A model generated the notes under the pieces. It did no database searches and had not been told where the DNA came from. It saw only the letters and a program-made list of their open reading frames with translations. Shown here one piece after another: positions 7,163-56,404 of a stretch of DNA of 64,000 nucleotides. Source of the stretch: Naegleria gruberi (Eukaryota); NCBI GenBank assembly GCA_000004985.1, contig GG738882.1. One strand, 5' to 3'. Within the stretch, counting starts at the first letter, position 1, and each line of letters starts with the position of its first letter. A program made the position numbers and the translations under genes.

Positions 7163-8272
7163 ATGAAGATAGGCTACGTTGGTATGAATAGGGCACTCAA
7201 ATTAACAACCTCCAATACAACCCGATTGAATAATGTTTCTCCAAAGAAGATTAAAGAAAAATTGCTAGTTAATATTGATCACTTGAAAAAGATGCTCAAG
7301 TGGAATGTTCAGAAGAATTTGCTCTTCTTTAGAATTGGAAGTGAATTTGTGCCATTTGCTAGTCATGAAAAGGTTCGGGATGAAGAATTCAAGCAAGAAT
7401 TTAATTGGATTGAGGAATGCGAAGATGATCTAAAGGAGATTGGAAAGTTTGTAAAGGAAAATAATATTAGAATTAGCATGCACCCTGATCAATTTGTATT
7501 GATTAATTCACCTGATATGGAAATATTCAATAGATCCTATGAAGAATTGAACTATCACGCTCAATTGATGAATACTATGGGATTAGATACCACTCATAAA
7601 TTCCAAATACATTTGGGTGGAAAGTATGATGACAAGAGAAAGTCAATGCAAAGATTTGTTGATCGATACAAGAATAATTTGAATGATGCTATCAGGGCTC
7701 GATGTGTATTGGAAAATGATGATAGAATTTATAGTTTGGAAGATGTGTATTGGATACATCAACAATGTGGCATTCCAATTCTCTTTGATACATTGCATCA
7801 TGAATGTTTGAATTCAAATGGTGACTCTTTAGAAGTGGCATTCAAGAAAGCTGCTAGTACTTGGGATCCGGTTAAGGATGGTGTTCCTCTTATTGACTAT
7901 TCAGATCAAGAACCAGGTGCACGTATTGGAAATCATAGAAAGAGCATTGAATTGAAGCATTTCAAGAAGGTAATTTGTGACAAGTTAATGAAATGCAAGA
8001 ACGATGATGGAGAATTTATTGAATTTGATGTCATGTTGGAAATCAAGGATAAGGACGCTAGTGCCATTAAGATCTTACCAGTCTTTTTAAAAGGTGTTGA
8101 GGATAGAGAAAAGGATCCAGAACCAACTGAGGATGACAATCAAGAAGATTTAAAAGTCCAAGTATTAGAGGAAGATGAGGACGAAGCAGTATCGAGTGAG
8201 GAAGAAAAACCAAAGAAGAGAAAGAAGGCACCAACCAAGAAGGCATCCACTACCAAGAGAAAGAAAAAATAA
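7163..8272 (+). CDS. UV-damage endonuclease (UVDE/UvsE/Uve1 family)
   Basis: Single exon, ATG at 7163. Matches UVDE hallmarks: N-terminal MKIGYVGMN, FRIGSEFVPFASH, ISMHPDQFVLINSP, IHLGGKYDDK, VLENDDRIY, FDTLHH, VMLEIKDKD (compare Thermus/Bacillus/S. pombe UVDE blocks MIRLGY, FRIG..IPFASH, SMHPGQY, LHLGG, LENDER, DTLHH, VMVEAK). C-terminal acidic then K/R-rich tail (KKRKKAPTKKASTTKRKKK) looks like an NLS. Confidence 0.9.
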   Translation: MKIGYVGMNRALKLTTSNTTRLNNVSPKKIKEKLLVNIDHLKKMLKWNVQKNLLFFRIGSEFVPFASHEKVRDEEFKQEFNWIEECEDDLKEIGKFVKENNIRISMHPDQFVLINSPDMEIFNRSYEELNYHAQLMNTMGLDTTHKFQIHLGGKYDDKRKSMQRFVDRYKNNLNDAIRARCVLENDDRIYSLEDVYWIHQQCGIPILFDTLHHECLNSNGDSLEVAFKKAASTWDPVKDGVPLIDYSDQEPGARIGNHRKSIELKHFKKVICDKLMKCKNDDGEFIEFDVMLEIKDKDASAIKILPVFLKGVEDREKDPEPTEDDNQEDLKVQVLEEDEDEAVSSEEEKPKKRKKAPTKKASTTKRKKK

Positions 8273-18530: not shown

Positions 18531-20441
18531 TTAATAAAAATATGCTTGCTTCTTTGAATTATAAGTTTCTTCATCTAGACAGACCAGTGAACAGTCTCTA
18601 CATTTAGTAAAGCATGCAACAATATCCTCTGGATTAGTGACAAGTACAGGAATTGAATCACTAAGAGGAACTCCCTTTTTGAATGCTTCTGGTGCGTACT
18701 TGACTAAAAGCTCTTTGTTTAATCTGTAAAAGAAATAGGTTGAGACAGGAGTTGGGTTAACAAGGAACCATTGCAAAACTTCTTCTTGCTGTTTCACATC
18801 AAATAAGGAGACAATTTCCATTGCTCTACTGTGTCCAATATTTTGTGAATTATGAGCAATTCCTTCTTTTAAGAATGTCCTACACCACTTTTTCCTTACT
18901 TCCATATCACAATAATTACTTAAGATTTGTGATCCCAATACAAATGCATAAATGTCTGGTTGTTTTCTTGCTAGTTCCAAAATCTTTTCCATATTTTCCT
19001 CATAGTTTTGATAGGTAAAAGGTGGTAATCCCCATGCCTGTAACACCTTTGATTGTATTGAATTATTCTCATCCCTAAATTGTAAAAATAAAGATGGTTT
19101 GGTATCGGCTATCATTTTTACTATTCTTGGATCTTCAGTCACCTTGGTTGAAAAGTTAACTATTGATTGAGGATTGATTGCAAAAAGTTTCTTTGCAAGA
19201 GGTCTGCAATCTTTCCAGAAGGCCGGCAAATAAGTGATGAGGCTTGGATTTTTCATCAATATCATTTCAACAATTTCCTTGTCTTGTAATAGTTCTTCTT
19301 GATTCAAAAATGCAGGGAAAGATGTCATATCTTCAATTTGATTGATTCCTTTGATTACCAATTTGCGGAAACCAGGGGTAGAGTAGGGAATATATTCCAA
19401 AGAGTAAGGTTTGGAAGAAACAGCAATTTCTAATAATTCTTGATGATTTCTCAGAAAATTAGAACTGAGATATTTGATAGCAAATCCATTTTGTTTTACA
19501 GCTTGAGTGACAACCTGCTTATCTTGCAAAAACTTGGTGCAATATTTTAACATTTTACCATGTGAGTTGACCAATCGAAGGCAAAAATCTCTATCTTCCA
19601 AGAAGGATTGAGGTATTTCCTTACCAATCTTGTAGTAAATTTTTGCAGCCTTTACAAGAAAATCTGGATCATTGAATTTTGGAGAGATTGCACTAATGGT
19701 CTTGGCAATTTGTTGAGGAGAAAGATCACGAGCTGTAAAATGTTTCAATAAACAAAGAGCTAATGGAGTGGATGTCACACCTGCAGGTAGTCGATTAAAT
19801 ATTTGTCTTCCACAAGCAATTTTACAATACTTTTGGAAACTATCTGCCTCAATTGTAAACATTGATGAAGGTGGATCGAATAGAGCATCCCATATATTAG
19901 TTTTTGTATTGTAATGGCCACTTGTACTAATAACAAGGTTATTATATTTCCCATTCGGAACTAGGACAATGTTATCACTAATACTAACAAGGTTATTCGT
20001 CTTTTCCCATAACTTGATTGGATATATCCAGTGTGCAGGATACGAATAATATGAATAGCTGGCAACATTCATATCTTCATCGAAATGTCTCGTCATCATC
20101 AGTAACTCTTTAATAATAAATGGAATTTTACAATTTAATTCAGTTTCAACTCTTTCAAATTCCTGTTGATATCGTTCTCTATATTCATCATCACAATCAA
20201 TTAATTGAAATTTATCAATCAAATGTTCATTATAAATAGTCAAATACTCCCGAAACACTCTACGAAAATAATTTAAAAAGGTGGCAACAAGTTGTCGATT
20301 CGTCACTCTAAAATTGCTCGATTCTCTGAATGGAATAAAACTGAATAATAATTCTAAAATTTCCGATGGTAAATCAAGTAATTTATAAAGATGATTGGAG
20401 GTGGTGGAAATTGTTGTGATCATAGTTTGATCGTGTTGCAT
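18531..20441 (-). CDS. F-box domain protein
   Basis: Single 636-aa ORF with ATG. N-terminal F-box-like LLDLPSEILELLFSFIPFRESSNFRVTNRQL. Rest unrecognised. Confidence 0.5.
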   Translation of the reverse strand: MQHDQTMITTISTTSNHLYKLLDLPSEILELLFSFIPFRESSNFRVTNRQLVATFLNYFRRVFREYLTIYNEHLIDKFQLIDCDDEYRERYQQEFERVETELNCKIPFIIKELLMMTRHFDEDMNVASYSYYSYPAHWIYPIKLWEKTNNLVSISDNIVLVPNGKYNNLVISTSGHYNTKTNIWDALFDPPSSMFTIEADSFQKYCKIACGRQIFNRLPAGVTSTPLALCLLKHFTARDLSPQQIAKTISAISPKFNDPDFLVKAAKIYYKIGKEIPQSFLEDRDFCLRLVNSHGKMLKYCTKFLQDKQVVTQAVKQNGFAIKYLSSNFLRNHQELLEIAVSSKPYSLEYIPYSTPGFRKLVIKGINQIEDMTSFPAFLNQEELLQDKEIVEMILMKNPSLITYLPAFWKDCRPLAKKLFAINPQSIVNFSTKVTEDPRIVKMIADTKPSLFLQFRDENNSIQSKVLQAWGLPPFTYQNYEENMEKILELARKQPDIYAFVLGSQILSNYCDMEVRKKWCRTFLKEGIAHNSQNIGHSRAMEIVSLFDVKQQEEVLQWFLVNPTPVSTYFFYRLNKELLVKYAPEAFKKGVPLSDSIPVLVTNPEDIVACFTKCRDCSLVCLDEETYNSKKQAYFY

Positions 20442-20585: not shown

Positions 20586-22295
20586 TTAGAGTTTTGTCTT
20601 TTTGTACATGGACTTGAGTGCCTTTTGTCTAAGATCTTCCATTTCTTCAACGGATCGTTTGTTTTCTCCTCTATCAACTTTGATTCGGTCAGTTTCGTAA
20701 ATGGAGGCAAGATTTTTCTTTACTTCATCCTTTCTAAAGTTCTTTTCATAGGTTGCTAGATTGTGGACCTTAGCTCCTAAGGCAGTGGTACAATTTCTTG
20801 AAACCAAATTAGAAAGTTCAGCAATTTGTTTCAACAATTCACTTTCGTTTTCAATTTTTTTGTACTTTTTCAAATATTGTTCAAGAATGAAAACTTCAGA
20901 TCTGCAATCATAACAATGATCCATTCCTTCAACTTGCACGTTGTGTGGATAATAGTGAACTCTTGTTCTGGTATTGAAATAAAACATTTGACTTTCGTAT
21001 TTTGCAGTATCGTATGGAATAGTTCCACAATCTTTTGAACATACTAATCTTGTTTCGGTTGTTGTTTGAGGTCCCCATACTGGCAAGTAAATATCTCCCT
21101 TCAAATATTCATAGCTCTTCTCAGATTGTGTATCATAAGGTAGACGAAACTTGAGCATGGACATTTTTGGTTTAATTGTCAAATGCCAATTCATTTGTGC
21201 TTGATTATCCCACTTGACACACTTTTCAATCTCCTCACGGTGCTCTACTGTTTGATTTTCATTTCCCTTCTCTGGTTGAGCTGTTCTAATATCACTAATA
21301 AACAACACATTTTTATCAGCATACTTTGCAGCCAACTCATCAGTAAAGAAATCATTCACAATTGTAATCTTATCTGTTGGTTTACAAACAAATGGACTTG
21401 GATCTACAAGTACGAAACTCAAATCAGGAAATAAATCACTCAAAAAGTTTGTGTGGTGGCCAGGAGCAGCACCTGCATAAACAACAATTGCACCAGGATA
21501 ACCAAATTCAGTTAAGAATTCAATTTCTGACATGAGTAATTTACGTTGACCCCAGTGAATGACACTCTTCAACTCTGACTTTCTTCTACGGTAAGTTTCT
21601 TGAGGATCGTGTGGTTGGAGTATACGATTGGTTCTATCGAATGGTTTCTCTTCAATGTGTGGATCATTGTAGTGCAATATTTGTTCACAATGTGGATTTG
21701 ATTTCTTATCTGGCCATTCGTAATTTTCATATTGTTTCTTTCGGTAGGAGAGAACGAATTGATTGGGAGCTCTGTTGAATTGATGGTAGAATCGAACTCT
21801 TCCTTGCGGTTGTTGATAGGAAGATGTATAGGAATGTGGAGGAGAATATCTATCCTCATCCCTTTTTCTGAATCCTGCTTGTCTGATATAAGAAGAAGAA
21901 GAAGCAGAAGCATGATAATATTCTTGTCTACCATATGAAGGCCGTTCTTCTCTTTCTTGATAATGAACATGAGAAGAATGGAAAGGCCTTATGTTGCCAG
22001 CATTTCGTGCCTTAATTGGTTTTCTATCCTGATAAGGGGACGCAGAGGAACCAACACTGAAGCGTTCTTCTTCCTCATGATATTGGTGTTGGTAATTTCG
22101 TTGTTTATTATCTGAACGATAAGAAGAATTATCAACAACAAAATTATCCCTTCTGGAAGAAATGTATTGCCTATTGCTGGAGCTGCTAAAAGTTGAACGA
22201 GTTCCATCTGGTTGTTGAGGAGTATCACATTGTCGAGAACGTTGGAGGTTGTTGTTGTGATTATTGTTGGTTTGAGGGTGGCCACGATTGTTCAT
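20586..22295 (-). CDS. cap-specific mRNA (nucleoside-2'-O-)-methyltransferase of the poxvirus VP39 type, with a ~250-aa R/S/Y/Q-rich low-complexity N-terminal extension
   Basis: Single exon, 569 aa. The C-terminal ~320 aa align block-by-block with vaccinia VP39 as I recall it: HWGQRKLLMSEIEFLT vs YQGQLKLLLGELFFLS; AIVVYAGAAPGHHTNFLSDLF vs [21 protein letters not shown] (SAM-binding motif I); VLFISDIRT vs IILISDVRS; MLKFRLPY vs SLKWRCPF. N-terminal region is N/Q/R/S/Y-rich (…SYRSDNKQRNYQHQYHEEEERF…SPPHSYTSSYQQ…). Confidence 0.85.
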   Translation of the reverse strand: MNNRGHPQTNNNHNNNLQRSRQCDTPQQPDGTRSTFSSSSNRQYISSRRDNFVVDNSSYRSDNKQRNYQHQYHEEEERFSVGSSASPYQDRKPIKARNAGNIRPFHSSHVHYQEREERPSYGRQEYYHASASSSSYIRQAGFRKRDEDRYSPPHSYTSSYQQPQGRVRFYHQFNRAPNQFVLSYRKKQYENYEWPDKKSNPHCEQILHYNDPHIEEKPFDRTNRILQPHDPQETYRRRKSELKSVIHWGQRKLLMSEIEFLTEFGYPGAIVVYAGAAPGHHTNFLSDLFPDLSFVLVDPSPFVCKPTDKITIVNDFFTDELAAKYADKNVLFISDIRTAQPEKGNENQTVEHREEIEKCVKWDNQAQMNWHLTIKPKMSMLKFRLPYDTQSEKSYEYLKGDIYLPVWGPQTTTETRLVCSKDCGTIPYDTAKYESQMFYFNTRTRVHYYPHNVQVEGMDHCYDCRSEVFILEQYLKKYKKIENESELLKQIAELSNLVSRNCTTALGAKVHNLATYEKNFRKDEVKKNLASIYETDRIKVDRGENKRSVEEMEDLRQKALKSMYKKTKL

Positions 22296-22529: not shown

Positions 22530-24266
22530 CTACTTGGAAGATAATCCGTAATTCATGTTGAATAGTTCTTGTATTTCAGTCGAATCCAAGAAGGGTTCCA
22601 AATCTGTTTCCACTTCCGAGCCAGCTGAGAAACTATCCAAAAAGCTGTTTAAACTTTCTTCATATTCCTTCATTCGGTGTTGAACTAGATTTTCATCCTC
22701 CCTTTCTGTTGTTGGAGTCAGGTCATTAAGATTGGAGATGTATTGGAAAAACTCATTGGCAGATTCAATTTTTGATAAATCCACAGTTGGGGGAGAAAAG
22801 CTCTGATTGGTAATGCATTCATTGAGGGCGTTATAGAATTGTTTCCTCTCAATTATTGTTTCAATTTCCTTAATCATATTGTGGTGGAAGAGTTGAACAC
22901 CCTTGTATCGTTTAGAGAGAATTTGAAGAGCTCTCAAATCTTTTGAAAGCACCTGATAGTAATCAATGGCACCTAGAGGAGAAGAAACGTCACAATTCTT
23001 GCGATCTCCCTTTTCAATGAGTTTAACAATTTGCAAATGGATTTTACAAGCAGCAGCAATTGGAGCAATCAAAAAGGAAGGAGAAAATGATAATTGGCCT
23101 GATTCAGTTGTGGTGGTTATTTTCAAAGCGCATTCTTCAATTTTATCCTTTCCTCTATTCATTTCAGTATAAATTCTAATCTTGAGTCCATTTCCAACAA
23201 TTTCTGCAATATCATTAAGAGTTCCAGAAACCCTCTGATTCTTCATCATCATTCCTTTACAAATACTAATTACAGCATCCAACATTTGAATGAAAATCAC
23301 ATAGGTACTCTCTGTTAATTTCTGGTCCAAAATCATACTCCACTCCTTTGGGAACTTGACGCCAATATGTTTTTCAGCAATTTCATGCCAATCTTTTAGC
23401 ATTCCCATAGCCGTATTCTCACTCTTGGCTTCACAGGTAAGAACTTGCTTGAATTTTTTCAAATTTATCTGATACTTTGTTGCTTTTAAATCGTCAATTG
23501 GGTTTTCATCTAAATAAAATTCAACAAATTTAAGGTAAAATCTAGCAGTTTTCAATTTTCCACATCCAATTTCATAACATGCCAAGTATGCATAGGCACT
23601 TGCTACATAAAAATTAGAGTGTTCATCGAAAATCTTGCTGAGAGCATCTCTGGCTTTACGTGCTGATTCATCTGCTGTTGGTGATGCAAGAGTTTCCTGC
23701 TCAATTTGTGCCTTAATAGCCATAAACATGGCCTTGACCTCTTTACAATTCGGTAATGAATCATCCTTACTCAATAAATAAGTTTCCAATTCCTTCGGAT
23801 TAATAACCCAAATCTCAGACATCATTTCTTCATAAATATCCAAATATTTCCTCATCTCTGCAAACTCATTAATTGTCTGATAAAGATTTCCTCCAACTCC
23901 AACTCCAGCACTAATATTACTTCCATTACCACCAATAGAAGAATTTGTAATAATACTTCCTGAATTAATTGTCAAATTATTAATCGAAATTAAATTATTA
24001 CAAGTTTCATTGAACGATGAATTTTCCATCTGGAATGTAATCTTTCCATCATTATTTGATTTCTTCTTCTTCCGAATCCTAGAGGCTCCCTTCTTTGCCT
24101 CTTCATAAACACATTCAACCTTCCTCCATTTACATCCACTACATGATGGCAATGCCCGATCGCAACATTTATGAAGACGTTTACAATTATTGCATGCTAT
24201 TGGATGGAATTGTGGTTTTTCTTCATCTATTGTGCCTGGTGATGGTGAGGATAATGGTTGTTGCAT
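22530..24266 (-). CDS. Zn(II)2Cys6 transcription factor, intronless paralog
   Basis: ATG (rc 24264-24266). N-terminus MQQPLSSPSPGTIDEEKPQFHPIACNNCKRLHKCCDRALPSCSGCKWRKVEC has the CX2CX6CX6CX2CX6C cluster preceded by the same FHPIAC motif as the 15204..17206 gene. 578 aa with Asn-rich low-complexity stretches. Confidence 0.8.
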   Translation of the reverse strand: MQQPLSSPSPGTIDEEKPQFHPIACNNCKRLHKCCDRALPSCSGCKWRKVECVYEEAKKGASRIRKKKKSNNDGKITFQMENSSFNETCNNLISINNLTINSGSIITNSSIGGNGSNISAGVGVGGNLYQTINEFAEMRKYLDIYEEMMSEIWVINPKELETYLLSKDDSLPNCKEVKAMFMAIKAQIEQETLASPTADESARKARDALSKIFDEHSNFYVASAYAYLACYEIGCGKLKTARFYLKFVEFYLDENPIDDLKATKYQINLKKFKQVLTCEAKSENTAMGMLKDWHEIAEKHIGVKFPKEWSMILDQKLTESTYVIFIQMLDAVISICKGMMMKNQRVSGTLNDIAEIVGNGLKIRIYTEMNRGKDKIEECALKITTTTESGQLSFSPSFLIAPIAAACKIHLQIVKLIEKGDRKNCDVSSPLGAIDYYQVLSKDLRALQILSKRYKGVQLFHHNMIKEIETIIERKQFYNALNECITNQSFSPPTVDLSKIESANEFFQYISNLNDLTPTTEREDENLVQHRMKEYEESLNSFLDSFSAGSEVETDLEPFLDSTEIQELFNMNYGLSSK

Positions 24267-25003: not shown

Positions 25004-26383
25004 TTATAGTGATTTGGCAATTATTTTATCCAATGAATCTTTCATCTCATTTCCATTCGAATCAACCATTAAAAAAGATTTTTTCAAATCCTTAATGAGC
25101 TTAAAATGATTTTTCACATTTCGAATAACAGATTCCTTGCCGAACACATGTTCTAATATTTCTTTCAAAGCAATAACATCAGCAGCAGCTGTATGCTGAT
25201 TTTCAATTGATTTTCTAAATAACTGTTGATAAATGTTACCTAATTTACATTGATTTTTCTCTAATTTCAACGCTTTCTTCAAAATTGGAATTGTATCTAA
25301 GAAAATGATATGACTATTTTTCAAACCATCTATTGTCTTTGAATTATTCATTCTCCAGTAATTGAAAGCACGATGTAGAACACTTTTGTCGAATGGTGCA
25401 TTATGAGCAAGAATTAAGGATTTCTTTGGTAAGAAATCAACAATTAATTTAACTGCTTCCATTTCCTTAGTTCCATTTTGCACCAATTCATTTGTGATTC
25501 CTGTTAATTTTTCAGCATCTCGTAAAATTTTCACTCTAGGAAGGATATATTTTGGAAATGATAAAAATCTATCTTTTGAAATATTATAAATATAACAATC
25601 AGTTGGAGCTCTTGTTTGAAGATCAGTTGTTTCAAAGTCCAAAATCAATACATCATATTCCTCAATAGATTCAATAAGACTACATTTGAATTGATGAGTA
25701 GTGCAGCCACCATTATTAAGACAACATTGTCTACATGATTTACAAGGTGCTTTTGTTGCTTTCCTTTTGTTACCACATTGGCACATTTCAATTCTAATTG
25801 AATTACACTTAGTTGATTTCTTTGGAGGAGGGTTTGTATTTGTATTTTGAGAGTTATTAGGTTGTGGTGTTTTTTGTGTATTACATTCAAACATTACTTC
25901 ATCCTCTTCCTTTTCCATTTTGAATTTTTCTAATCTAATCTTCCTACATAATTCTTGCTGAAGAGCATTTGTTAAATAGCAAGAATTCACCATACAATCG
26001 GATATTACTTTAGCCTTATCAGTTGAGCAATCATGTTTGGTCTGTAAATGATTTGACAAACTCTTTCCAATCACATAATTTTTTTGACATAAAGGACAAA
26101 CAATTGGATCGTTCTTGTTGCTGACTACATCAGTATCTTTCCGTAATGGAATTGAGTTTTGTTTCATATTAATGCTCTTAATTATTGTTTGCACATTGCC
26201 AATTACATCTTTTGGAACAACAATTTTTTTTACAAAATTATCTGGCAATGGAGGAATATCATATTCCAATATGAATCTTCCAATTGTAATGGTTGACTCT
26301 GCGTGAATTCCATAGCCTGNNNNNNNNNNNNNNNNNNNNNNNNNNNNNNNNNNNNNNNNNNNNNNNNNNATTTTTTTGAGCAT
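25004..26383 (-). CDS. DEDDh-family 3'-5' exonuclease (DnaQ/RNase T-like fold) with C2H2 zinc finger and Cys-rich region; interrupted by an assembly gap
   Basis: Exo I VLILDFETTD, Exo II ILAHNAPFDKSVL, Exo III HTAAADVIAL. C2H2-like CPLCQKNYVIGKSLSNHLQTKHD. Cys cluster CQCGNKRKATKAPCKSCRQCC. The N-terminal part runs into the N-run at 26320..26369, so the 5' end and true start are undefined. Confidence 0.6.
   Translation of the reverse strand: MLKKXXXXXXXXXXXXXXXXXXGYGIHAESTITIGRFILEYDIPPLPDNFVKKIVVPKDVIGNVQTIIKSINMKQNSIPLRKDTDVVSNKNDPIVCPLCQKNYVIGKSLSNHLQTKHDCSTDKAKVISDCMVNSCYLTNALQQELCRKIRLEKFKMEKEEDEVMFECNTQKTPQPNNSQNTNTNPPPKKSTKCNSIRIEMCQCGNKRKATKAPCKSCRQCCLNNGGCTTHQFKCSLIESIEEYDVLILDFETTDLQTRAPTDCYIYNISKDRFLSFPKYILPRVKILRDAEKLTGITNELVQNGTKEMEAVKLIVDFLPKKSLILAHNAPFDKSVLHRAFNYWRMNNSKTIDGLKNSHIIFLDTIPILKKALKLEKNQCKLGNIYQQLFRKSIENQHTAAADVIALKEILEHVFGKESVIRNVKNHFKLIKDLKKSFLMVDSNGNEMKDSLDKIIAKSL
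26320..26369. other. assembly gap (50 N)
   Basis: Run of n characters read directly. Confidence 0.99.
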
Positions 26384-38564: not shown

Positions 38565-41003
38565 ATGACTCTAATTGTTAAAAAGAGTGGAGAGAAGGAA
38601 CTCTTCTCCTCCGAAAAGATTAGAATCAGACTCCAAGACCACACCAAGGATCTCTATCACATTAATATAGATTCTATCATTGAAAAGCTTCAACTTGAAA
38701 TTCACAACGATATTACCACTGAAAAGTTGGACAACCTCATTGCTGAATGTATTGCCTATATGGCCTATTCTCATCCTGACTATTTAAAGTTGGCTGGTAG
38801 AGTGAAAGTTTCTACCCTCCACAAACACACAAAGTCAAAATTCTCTGAAGTCGTTCATGATTTGCGTAACTTCATCCACCCAAGAACTAATTTGCCATCA
38901 CCATTAATTTCCGAAGAAGTTTTTAATGTTGTTGCTGCCAATGTGGATGTTTTGGATCAAGCCATCAAGAGTGAAAGAGATTTCCAATTCGATTACTTTG
39001 GATACAAGACTCTCGAAAGAAGCTACTTGCTCAAACTTGCCGATAGTCGTATTGCCGAAAGACCACAACACATGTTTATGCGTGTAAGTTTAGGTATCCA
39101 CGGAGGTGACATTGAAAGAGCCATTCAAACCTATGATTTACTCAGTAGTGGTATGTTTATTCATGCCTCTCCAACATTGTTCAATGCTGGTACTCCAATT
39201 CCACAAATGAGTTCTTGTTTCCTCGTTTCTATGAAGGATGATTCCATTCATGGTATTTATGATACCCTTAAGACTTGTGCCCTTATTTCCAAGTCTGCTG
39301 GTGGTATTGGTTTGTCAGTTCACAATATTAGAGCTTCTGGATCATACATTAGAGGTACAAACGGAACATCAAATGGTTTAATTCCAATGTTGAGAGTTTT
39401 CAATGACACTGCCAGATATGTCGATCAAGGTGGTGGTAAGAGAAAGGGTGCCTTTGCCATTTATTTGGAACCTTGGCACTCTGACATTTTTGACTTTTTG
39501 GATTTGAGAAAGAATCACGGTAAGGAAGAAATCAGAGCTAGAGATTTATTCTTGGGTTTATGGGTCAACGATCTCTTCATGCAACGTGTTAAGGATGATG
39601 CCGAATGGTCACTCTTCTGTCCAAATGAAGCTCAAGGTCTTGCTGATGTTTGGGGTGAAGAATTCAATCAATTATATACCAAATATGAAAGAGAAGGAAA
39701 GGCCAAGAGAACCATCAAGGCTCAAGAACTCTGGTTTGCTATTATTGAAGCCCAAATTGAAACTGGTGTCCCATACATGTTGTACAAGGATTCTTGTAAT
39801 AGAAAATCCAATCAACAAAACCTTGGTACCATCAAGTCTTCTAACTTGTGTACTGAAATTATTGAATTTACTGCTCCTGATGAAGTTGCTGTATGTAACC
39901 TTGCCAGTATTGCTCTTCCAAAGTATGTCAATGAAGAAACTCAAACCTATGATCACCAAAAGTTATACGAAGTTGTCAAGATTGCCACTTACAATTTGAA
40001 TAAGATTATTGATAAGAATTATTACCCAGTCGAAGAAGCCAAGAAGAGTAACTTTAGACACAGACCAATTGGTCTCGGTGTTCAAGGTTTGGCCGATGCT
40101 TTCATCAAGATGCGTCTTCCATTCGAAAGTGAAGAAGCTAAAAACCTCAACAGGGAAATCTTTGAAACCATTTACTTTGCTGCCATGACCTGCTCAATGG
40201 AACTTGCTAAGGTTGAAGGAACATATGAAACCTATGAAGGAAGTCCAATCAGTAAGGGTATCTTCCAACACGAATTCTGGACCAGAGAAGGTGAACCATT
40301 CGAAGGTAAGACTATTACCAGCGGTAGATGGGATTGGGAAGGTTTGAGACAACAAGTCTTGCAACACGGTGTCAGAAACAGTCTCTTAGTTGCACCAATG
40401 CCAACTGCTTCCACCAGTCAAATCTTGGGCAACAATGAATGTTTCGAACCATATACATCAAACGTTTATACTAGACGTGTTTTGAGTGGTGAATATCCAG
40501 TCATTAACAGACATCTTGTTGCTGATTTGATCAAGATTGACATGTGGAATCCAACTATTGTTAACCAAATTATTGGTAATAGAGGTTCCATCCAAAATAT
40601 CCAAGGTATCCCTGATGATATTAAGGAATTGTACAAGACTGTTTGGGAAATTAAGCAAAGAAGCTTGTTGGATCTTGCCATTGAAAGATCTCCATTCATT
40701 GATCAATCTCAATCTTTGAACGTTTTCATTTCAATTCCATCAGTTTCCAAGATGAGTTCTATGCACTTTTATGCTTGGTCTAAGGGGTTGAAGACTGGTA
40801 TGTACTATTTGAGAACTCAACCAGCCGCCGATGCCATCCAATTCACTGTCGATCCAAACATGATGAAGCAAAGCGTTTCAACATCACAAGCTGAAGAACC
40901 AAAGCAAGAAGAAGAAGTTATCGTTTGCAAAAGAAAGAAGAGAGGCCAAGCTCCACCTGAAGGTGAAGAAGACGAAGAAGAATGCCTCGTCTGTGGTGCT
41001 TAA
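38565..41003 (+). CDS. RNR1: ribonucleoside-diphosphate reductase large subunit (class Ia RNR alpha)
   Basis: Intronless 812-aa ORF, ATG at 38565. N-terminal ATP-cone ([19 protein letters not shown]). Catalytic blocks [35 protein letters not shown]-terminal redox tail ...EECLVCGA. Confidence 0.95.
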
Positions 41004-54816: not shown

Positions 54817-56404
54817 ATGTTGGTACAAAAATACCTCAAAGAAGCACTAAGTTATGGGAAAAAGGCTTTTCAATTTGAGGAGAAACTTCCCTCCACACTT
54901 AAGGAATGTAACGAAAGTTATGCAAAGGCTTCGAGTTGTTTGAGGTGTGCCATTAGTTTCGAGAAGAATGAGCTTCTCAAGTCCATATACGAACAATTGA
55001 ATGCTACCTATGAAGGAAGAATAGGATTGTTAAGAGGAAATACAAATGAAAATTGTCATCAGCAACAACATCAAGAAGGAGGTGTCATCACTATTGATTC
55101 CGATTCAGATCGATCAGAGTCGAATCAAAGCCTTGAACAATCAGAGTCACTTCAGAGACCTTCCGAATTTCAAACAACAATGGAGACTTCTTCATCATCT
55201 CTGAAAAAAGTGGATTCTAAAAAGTCTAACAAGAGGCCAATTATGATTGACGAAAGTGGAGACGAAAGCAGTGCCGAAGAAGATGAAGAAGCCTCTTCTC
55301 AATATTCAAGTAAGAGAAAGAAGAGGAAGGATGTGGAGGAAATCAAATCATTCATCATTGATTCGAAAAAGAAAGGACCTAATGATCAAACTTGGAAACA
55401 AATAGTTGGATTGGAATCAGTCATTGAATGTATAAGGGAGGCAACAATTCTTCCTCAGAAATTTCCTCAATTATTTGTTGGGGAGAGAAGACCTTGGAGA
55501 GCAATTCTTCTCTATGTAAGTTTGATTGATTGAATTAATGCATTCTAATACTGTATAGGGACCTCCTGGTACAGGAAAGGTATGTAAATTGTAATCTTAA
55601 TATATTCACACGAATAATAACAAGACCTTATTGGCATCCACATTAGCAAGTGAATCTGAGGCAACATTTTTCAGTGTATCAAGTGCTGATCTTCTTTCGA
55701 AATGGGTTGGACAATCAGAGAAGAAAATTAAACAATTATTCGAATTTGCAGCATCCAGAAAGCCTTCAATTATTTTCATTGATGAAATAGATAGCTTGTG
55801 CTCTGCCAGAAATGACACTGACAGTGAAACTTCAAGGAGAATCAAAACAGAATTCCTCGTACAGATGCAAGGCATAGGATCTAGAGATGGTGTTACAGTC
55901 ATTGGTGCAACAAACTTGCCTTGGGATATTGACTCTGCTATAAGGAGAAGATTTGAGAAGAGAATATATGTTCCTCTACCAACTCAAGAATCAAGAAGAG
56001 AAATTATCAAACACAACCTTAGAAATACTCCAAACTCGCTCATTGAGGAGAATTTTCAAAAGATTGCTGAGCTAACAGACGGCTATTCAGGGTCTGACCT
56101 TTCTGTTGTCATACGACAGGCCATTATGGAACCATTGAGAAAGTGTCAACAAGCCACTCATTTTAGATTAATATCTGGATACTCTCCAATAACTGGAATC
56201 GAGCGCAATGACTTGTTAGAACCCGTGTTTGAAAATATTGAGCAGTTTGATACAGTTCAAATATCCTTGTACGATATTTCACCTGAAAAGCTATTACCAC
56301 CCTTAGTATCATTCGAAGACTTTGAAAAGGCATTGAACATTATTCACCCAACGCTATCAAGGGAAGATGTTGCAAAGTATCAAGAATTTTCCAAAATATT
56401 CTAA
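54817..56404 (+). CDS. VPS4: Vps4-type AAA ATPase (MIT domain plus AAA cassette), 3 exons including a 21-nt micro-exon
   Basis: Exon 1 54817..55515, intron 55516..55558 (43 nt), micro-exon 55559..55579 (GGACCTCCTGGTACAGGAAAG = GPPGTGK), intron 55580..55624 (45 nt, GTATGT...CAAG), exon 3 55625..56404. Spliced product ...PWRAILLY|GPPGTGK|TLLASTLASESEATFFSVSSADLLSKWVGQSEK...IIFIDEIDSL...ATNLPWDIDSAIRRRFEKRIYVPLP... matches Vps4 throughout. N-terminal MIT-like helices. Confidence 0.9.

Follow-up and report, generated by a model that had tools for sequence, protein, structure and literature searches.

Does Naegleria gruberi possess a poxvirus-type cap methyltransferase as a gene of its own, and which nucleotide next to the cap would such an enzyme modify? 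The question is raised by an uninterrupted open reading frame (ORF) of 569 codons on the minus strand of a 64,000-nucleotide stretch of contig GG738882.1 (assembly GCA_000004985.1), which is referred to here as the window. An initial annotation, made from the sequence alone, had described this ORF as a VP39-type cap 2'-O-methyltransferase with a host-like, low-complexity N-terminal tail, possibly acquired horizontally and domesticated. In the ORF listing of the window, the reading frame was found at 20586-22295 as described before, with its ATG at 22295 and its stop codon at 20586-20588. The product of 569 amino acids (aa) is identical to the N. gruberi protein XP_002674806.1 (100% identity, 100% coverage, equal length), which is also filed as EFC42062.1, NAEGRDRAFT_70140 and UniProt D2VMH7. 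The coding sequence can thus be considered as complete and intronless, and the window is therefore N. gruberi nuclear DNA. All evidence taken together, the ORF is very probably a resident nuclear gene for a VP39-family cap ribose 2'-O-methyltransferase. It had been suggested to be an uncharacterised factor, but the gene had been recognised before. The identical database entry is titled 'predicted protein [Naegleria gruberi]', but UniRef100_D2VMH7 bears the name "Cap-specific mRNA (nucleoside-2'-O-)-methyltransferase", and Werner et al. 2011 (NAR; PMC3113572) had assigned a N. gruberi protein to the branch of the trypanosome cap2 enzyme TbMTr2. Gene and family assignment are thus already published and databased under the correct functional name.

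The catalytic domain is of the VP39 type, as the initial annotation had correctly recognised, and not of the FtsJ/CMTR type. In a Pfam scan of the ORF, the family PF01358 (PARP_regulatory) matched residues 233-472 (20880-21599, on the minus strand like all features of the gene) with an E-value of 3.6e-22 and 79.1 bits, compared to a curated cut-off of 25.4 bits. The match spans profile positions 16-264 of 292, and no FtsJ/RrmJ domain (PF01728) was detected at E <= 0.1. When all PDB sequences were searched with phmmer, twelve distinct VP39 chains were the sole significant matches, with E-values from 1.3e-10 to 1.1e-9 over residues 242-445. An AlphaFold2 model was calculated for residues 216-569 from an input alignment of 69 sequences and reached a mean pLDDT of 88.5 and a pTM of 0.84. 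Compared with the PDB by Foldseek, the model, which shows a Rossmann-fold core, found VP39 in all of its top 21 matches (E 1.8e-19 to 7e-17, target-normalised TM 0.71-0.79), followed by bluetongue virus (BTV) VP4 with 1.8e-7 and then E. coli FtsJ (1eiz) with 5e-5 and a TM of 0.32. In a viral structure library, the best matches were giant-virus proteins named as cap-specific 2'-O-methyltransferases (E 1e-29 to 1e-22). The part that matches VP39 comprises approx. 240 aa by sequence and approx. 290-316 alignment columns by structure; the C-terminal 320 aa had been proposed earlier.

The VP39 reference sequence, which was checked to be identical to PDB 1bky_A, was aligned with the Naegleria domain and seven homologues. 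The predicted catalytic tetrad K-D-K-E consists of K252 (21540-21542), D335 (21291-21293), K382 (21150-21152) and E414 (21054-21056), which align to VP39 K41, D138, K175 and E207, respectively. It is essentially invariant across 66 aligned family members, and K252 is found in 69/69 and 66/66 sequences. The motif I for binding of S-adenosylmethionine (SAM), VVYAGAAPGHH, is present at residues 271-281 (21453-21485) as initially reported, with Y273, G275 and G279 aligning to VP39 Y66, G68 and G72. D298 aligns to VP39 D95, the acidic residue after strand 2. Concerning the cap-binding side, Y387 (21135-21137) aligns to the cap-stacking F180 of VP39 and is W or Y in 69/69 members, while E434 (20994-20996) aligns to the m7G-contacting E233 (E in 62/69, Q in 5). 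The near-invariant Y235 (21591-21593; Y in 67/69) is the probable counterpart of the cap-stacking Y22 of VP39. A 'Y-Y-E motif' has been described in PMC13393146. The remaining blocks named in the initial annotation exist as well, but they had been quoted close to VP39's own wording, namely LISDIR, LKWRCPF and YQGQLKLLL; Naegleria reads FISDIR, LKFRLPY and HWGQRKLLM.

By analogy with its relatives, the protein would be a SAM-dependent and m7G-cap-dependent ribose 2'-O-methyltransferase of the family that comprises VP39, TbMTr2 and the Medusavirus Cap3MTase. The Rossmann core would hold SAM via motif I (VVYAGAAPG) and D298, and Y235 and Y387 would stack the m7G cap between their aromatic rings, with E434 as a further contact. 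For methyl transfer, the tetrad K252-D335-K382-E414 would then activate a 2'-OH, namely that of a nucleotide next to the cap in capped Pol II transcripts. As for the methylated position, 2 or 3 would be favoured over 1; the former two are given equal weight, each as a plausible option short of a probable one. Position 2 is suggested because the published phylogeny has the Naegleria protein in the cap2 (TbMTr2) branch, and position 3 because the closest characterised relative, with 61% core identity, methylates the third nucleotide. This relative, the Medusavirus protein YP_010801901.1, depends on an m7G cap and acts in vitro on the third nucleoside; with the same substrate, VP39 produced cap1 and TbMTr2 produced cap2 (Takemura & Ishige 2026, JBC, PMC13393146).

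It is rather unlikely, yet deserves the most serious consideration among the alternatives, that the enzyme is the cell's cap1 (first-nucleotide) methyltransferase and stands in CMTR1's place as VP39 does in vaccinia. VP39 itself is a cap1 enzyme, and positional flexibility is possible in VP39-family enzymes (PMC9479742). In Werner et al. 2011 (PMC3113572), the TbMTr2 branch is the sole place where N. gruberi is mentioned, and the species is missing from the taxa with orthologues of hMTr1 or hMTr2; for Monosiga, the authors reported a TbMTr2-like enzyme but no cap1 orthologue. Furthermore, choanoflagellate homologues bear G-patch and WW domains like metazoan CMTR1. Methylation of the first nucleotide is therefore possible, especially if Naegleria has no CMTR1 orthologue; such an absence is, however, not stated by Werner et al. 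2011, and a literature search on Naegleria and CMTR1, or on 'VP39-like' in eukaryotes, yielded nothing relevant. Moreover, the two nearest characterised relatives act at position 3 and at position 2, and VP39 shares just 28% core identity with the Naegleria protein.

That the methyltransferase is a resident nuclear gene and not a contamination was confirmed by its composition and by its surroundings. It has a GC3 of 0.28 and a codon-usage correlation of r = 0.945 with the pooled neighbours, which is within the neighbours' ranges (GC3 0.20-0.36, r 0.79-0.96), and the GC content is 0.30-0.38 throughout the window. The window holds 37 ORFs of at least 150 aa, 33 of which were scanned with Pfam. 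Among these 33, no domain of a capsid, a packaging ATPase or a viral DNA polymerase was found, in agreement with the earlier statement that viral hallmark genes are missing nearby. No Pfam match at all was obtained for 17 of them, and all matches found were ordinary non-viral domains of cellular genes.

The homology search returned 1203 proteins at E <= 1e-3, and the taxa were drawn from the best 120 of these matches. The best non-self matches listed were those of N. lovaniensis (64%) and Willaertia magna (57%), the orthologues of which are located on scaffolds of approx. 0.4-0.5 Mb among cellular genes. Named matches with 40-55% identity (BLASTP local) among those listed came from Capsaspora, Thecamonas, the rotifers Brachionus and Rotaria and two Medusaviruses. 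EukProt entries among the matches included Mastigamoeba, Ceratiomyxa, four choanoflagellates, the centrohelid Pterocystis and Pharyngomonas kirbyi, a deep-branching heterolobosean with two paralogues. Over the core (residues 233-478 of the N. gruberi protein), the identity was 75-76% with the Naegleria and Willaertia orthologues, 61% with Medusavirus, 57-58% with Capsaspora, Thecamonas and a metagenomic 'cap2 methyltransferase', and 28% with VP39. Relatives with up to 48% identity are encoded on 50 giant-virus contigs in IMG/VR. On one of them (L005), which carries a close relative, this gene is surrounded by HNH-AP2, Hint/intein and DUF genes, in keeping with a giant virus. Judged by these matches, the family has a wide but patchy distribution in eukaryotes and giant viruses. 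The fold had been described as otherwise known mainly from poxviruses, nucleocytoplasmic large DNA viruses and kinetoplastids; homologues occur in at least four other eukaryotic supergroups.

A neighbour-joining tree was calculated from 66 sequences and 291 columns with 100 bootstraps and VP39 as root, without the kinetoplastid MTr2/MTr3. The two Naegleria sequences and Willaertia were grouped with a bootstrap value of 97, and Pharyngomonas (P0029) joined them at 51. The identity ranking showed the same order with the heteroloboseans first, followed by Medusavirus together with three IMG/VR contigs and then by the other eukaryotes; the heterolobosean orthologues were most similar with 59, 58 and 50% over the aligned length. 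Given this clustering and the same order of identities, the sequences place the gene already in the heterolobosean ancestor, with vertical inheritance at least since then.

That the Naegleria lineage recently took over the gene from a giant virus or a poxvirus-like one and domesticated it with a host-like tail is very unlikely in the light of these data. Such a capture would agree with the abundance of the family in giant viruses (50 IMG/VR loci), with the position of Medusavirus among the closest named matches listed and with the VP39-rooted tree, in which giant-virus sequences are basal and the eukaryotic ones form the crown. In addition, virus-to-eukaryote exchange in the family generally is favoured in two papers (PMC3113572, PMC13393146). 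However, the orthologues of four heterolobosean taxa cluster and are the most similar sequences, and homologues are present in Opisthokonta, Amoebozoa, Apusomonadida and Haptista, to which Werner et al. 2011 (PMC3113572) add Alveolata. The homologues that the viral structure library contains for named giant viruses and for bins of viral metagenomes are just 18-36% identical, compared to 58% core identity for Capsaspora and Thecamonas. The codon usage is indistinguishable from the one of the neighbours, no viral hallmark gene was found among the scanned ORFs, and the composition of the tail is common to viral and other eukaryotic members. A capture specific to Naegleria, as suggested by the initial annotation, can thus be considered as largely refuted; by the criterion which that annotation had set for itself, the idea fails for any event younger than the heterolobosean ancestor.

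Some observations weigh against an old, vertically inherited cap methyltransferase of the TbMTr2 type and should be mentioned together. All nodes deeper than Heterolobosea had bootstrap values below 15 in the tree, and for this reason an ancient transfer from virus to eukaryote or from eukaryote to virus is possible. A tblastn comparison of the 37 window ORFs of at least 150 aa, minus the methyltransferase, gave no match in the 10 kb to each side of the N. lovaniensis (L001) or the Willaertia (L002) orthologue; this lack of microsynteny is uninformative on vertical versus horizontal descent, since its meaning depends on the background level of synteny between these genomes. In the sequence alignment, VP39 Y22 is aligned to Naegleria E233, two residues upstream of the near-invariant Y235. 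Finally, the grouping of the Naegleria protein with TbMTr2 is as reported by Werner et al. 2011 (PMC3113572), and the orthology rests on that paper.

The Willaertia orthologue P0003 (394 aa; L002 10001-11333, JBEGDK010000021.1) is a special case. Its protein model lacks approx. 40 residues of the SAM region, but the DNA encodes them in two frames approx. 19 nt apart. The apparent intron at this site was considered as a sign of eukaryotic residency and was rejected, as the model drops these conserved residues. The gap is probably due to an assembly frameshift or a mis-called intron and not to a real deletion.

The Medusavirus enzyme, 61% identical over the core, strictly requires the m7G cap (PMC13393146). 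This speaks against a pseudoenzyme without activity and against a methyltransferase that has a target in RNA other than the cap. The same holds for the tetrad, for the SAM motif and for the residues aligned to aromatic or acidic cap contacts, which are kept and near-invariant in 66-69 homologues; the long disordered tail and an extra His/Cys cluster could mean another partner or substrate, but this explanation is highly improbable. A poly(A)-associated role, which had been considered initially, is hardly credible. All that speaks for a processivity or regulatory subunit of poly(A) polymerase, as VP39 is in the VP55-VP39 heterodimer, is the name of the Pfam family and the match of the fold to chain A of 2ga9/2gaf. 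In contrast, the relatives from trypanosomes and Medusavirus have been described as nothing but cap methyltransferases, and the conserved catalytic and, in part, cap-binding residues indicate selection on methyltransferase activity. The role is unlikely because it depends on the poxvirus-specific partner VP55, with which it is to our knowledge known solely for poxvirus VP39 (reportedly from the work of Schnierle et al. in 1992).

Outside the catalytic core of the cap methyltransferase, three further regions can be distinguished. The N-terminal tail was described as a low-complexity extension of approx. 250 aa. A tail indeed exists, and the composition of the first 232 aa is dominated by S29, R26, Q22, N21 and Y18, but its low-complexity part, rich in S/R/Q/N/Y/P and poorly conserved, comprises only residues 1-186 (21738-22295). 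Residues 187-232 (21600-21737) form a conserved lead-in (W..NPH..Q .. F.RIL) that is specific to the eukaryote/giant-virus subfamily in the alignment; it reads WPD..NPHCEQ..FDRTNRIL in Naegleria, and the consensus of the homologues is WxxxxxNPHxxQ...PFxRIL. Within the core, the alignment revealed a His/Cys cluster H451-x8-H460-C461-x2-C464 (HNVQVEGMDHCYDC) at residues 451-464 (20904-20945). In 69 eukaryotic and giant-virus members, its residues are conserved as H in 66/69, H in 62/69, C in 68/69 and C in 68/69, and the cluster is missing in vaccinia VP39 in this alignment. It may be a candidate metal-binding site that defines the subfamily. The C-terminal extension, residues 473-569 (20589-20879), is rich in K and E and helical in the AlphaFold2 model, with helices at residues 247-263, 269-287, 307-318 and 334-353 of the modelled fragment. 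The pLDDT was 49-73 for fragment residues 291-340, and the low-confidence part of the model corresponds to approximately residues 516-555 of the protein.

The tails of the N. lovaniensis and Willaertia orthologues are 56 and 75 aa long, and the N. gruberi tail is poorly conserved there. In the whole family, tails of at least 50 aa were found in 36/113 members, with a pooled content of 11% R, 9% S, 8% E and 7.5% D. Such R/S/E/D/Y-rich tails include the one of the Medusavirus enzyme as well as those of choanoflagellate proteins with RDY/RSY-type repeats. The sole trait of the N. gruberi tail that looks typical for the host is its enrichment in N/Q (19%). The host-like composition had been taken as a sign of domestication; because comparable tails recur across the family, Medusavirus included, the tail is not evidence for it. 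It is probably a disordered targeting or recruitment region for the nuclear transcription and RNA-processing machinery, and its role would be analogous to that of the G-patch and WW domains which are fused to choanoflagellate and amoebozoan homologues and which, in some of them, stand beside or replace disordered tails.

G-patch and WW domains are accessory modules of metazoan CMTR1. Five VP39-type methyltransferases of choanoflagellates and Ceratiomyxa (P0113, P0090, P0104, P0021 and P0107) were found to be fused to G-patch and/or WW domains, for example in the order WW-methyltransferase-G-patch in Acanthoeca and methyltransferase-WW in Ceratiomyxa. By analogy, these fusions suggest a convergent coupling to Pol II and DHX15-type partners. 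Other architectures were observed as well. The Brachionus protein P0034 and the metagenomic P0005 (780-830 aa) contain two PF01358 stretches each, which may be tandem domains, and the Rotaria homologue P0119 is fused to an RNase_T exonuclease. A functional link to the RNase_T gene in the window (25004-26383), two genes upstream of the methyltransferase, was considered and dropped, as it showed no similarity to the Rotaria fusion (best E 7.9).

In the window, Pfam matches were obtained for UvdE, RNR1, D123, MBOAT, glycerate kinase, actin-like, peptidase S9, AAA/Vps4, F-box/DUF4116, Zn2Cys6, RNase_T, PKD, TM2, NHL-like and NTPase domains. The methyltransferase gene is flanked by genes for an F-box/DUF4116 protein and a Zn2Cys6 protein. 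The downstream neighbour (18531-20441, minus strand) encodes a weak N-terminal F-box (E 0.006, below the Pfam cut-off) and four DUF4116 repeats (E 1.6e-29). In this heterolobosean genome, a 'fungal' Zn(2)-Cys(6) binuclear cluster domain is encoded by the upstream neighbour (22530-24266, minus strand), with a PF00172 match that exceeds the cut-off (E 1.7e-5). In a gene for a Vps4-like AAA ATPase (54817-56404, plus strand), a micro-exon of 21 nt (55560-55580) between two very short GT..AG introns supplies the Walker A motif GPPGTGK. These introns confirm spliceosomal genes in the window, as the initial annotation had assumed for the surroundings. The gene for the large subunit of ribonucleotide reductase (38565-41003, plus strand) is an intronless ORF of 812 aa with the most deviant codon usage (r = 0.79 compared to 0.90-0.96) and the highest GC content (0.39), which may reflect high expression. 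An intronless ORF on the plus strand (7163-8272) encodes a UvdE-type UV damage endonuclease (PF03851, E 1.6e-55).

Concerning the role of the cap methyltransferase in the cell, a tentative proposal, with the balance still against it, is that ordinary Pol II transcripts of Naegleria receive ribose methylation of the cap2 or even the cap3 type from this VP39-type enzyme, which would be part of a third ancient family of cellular cap methyltransferases. If this is true, the family possibly dates from the era of the last eukaryotic common ancestor, is widespread in protists and some animals (rotifers), is sometimes fused to CMTR1-like G-patch and WW domains and has repeatedly been exchanged with giant viruses; it would have gone largely unnoticed because model organisms lack a VP39-type enzyme. 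As the family is broad in eukaryotes and fused to G-patch and WW domains, nuclear cap maturation in many protists is suggested to involve VP39-type enzymes as a regular component, so that these would be no oddity of viruses or kinetoplastids. The Naegleria protein is a cheap and well-defined candidate to ask whether free-living eukaryotes without trans-splicing make caps beyond cap1/cap2, because a position-3 (Cap3) methyltransferase has now become its closest characterised relative. In practical terms little is gained, since the family placement was published in 2011 and the correct name is in the databases. VP39 inhibitors exist, as the PDB matches include complexes of mpox VP39 with inhibitors, and no mammals were among the best 120 of the 1203 matches for this enzyme type. 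The remaining interest lies in the position specificity, given the new Cap3 enzyme, and in the under-appreciated eukaryotic breadth of VP39-type cap methyltransferases.

Compared with known systems, the metazoan enzymes CMTR1 and CMTR2 share the reaction chemistry and the K-D-K-E tetrad and are members of the RrmJ/fibrillarin superfamily (PMC3113572). They belong to another family, however, and FtsJ-like structures match the Naegleria model 14 orders of magnitude worse than VP39. VP39 from vaccinia and monkeypox (PDB 1av6, 8b07) has the same fold (Foldseek E 1e-19, TM 0.71-0.79), the same tetrad, SAM motif I and contacts of the F180/E233 type. It differs by its core identity of 28% and by its extra role with VP55, and it has neither the His/Cys cluster nor the conserved lead-in nor a disordered tail.

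The Trypanosoma brucei enzymes TbMTr2 (TbCom1, cap2) and TbMTr3 (cap3) belong to the VP39 family and are cellular enzymes of an organism that, like Naegleria, is part of Discoba. They differ in that they act on spliced-leader RNA, where they build cap4; we know of no trans-splicing in Naegleria. Both have been described as VP39 relatives in reviews (PMC9479742 among them). Since TbMTr2 is just 31.8% identical to the Medusavirus enzyme (PMC13393146), its distance from the Naegleria protein is probably far greater than that of the Capsaspora and Thecamonas homologues.

Judged by sequence identity, the closest characterised relative of the Naegleria enzyme is the Cap3MTase of Acanthamoeba castellanii medusavirus (YP_010801901.1, P0022 in our set), a member of the same PF01358 subfamily with 61% identity over the core and 46% over the whole BLASTP alignment (E 1e-94). 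Both proteins contain the HWGQRKLLMSEIEFLT, MLKFRLPY and VWGPQTTTETRL blocks, and they have the second His and the two Cys of the cluster, the NPH..Q lead-in and an R/S/E/D-rich tail in common. The Medusavirus enzyme differs by its viral origin and its shorter tail of approx. 63 aa, and its action at position 3 has been demonstrated in vitro, while the Naegleria enzyme is known from sequence.

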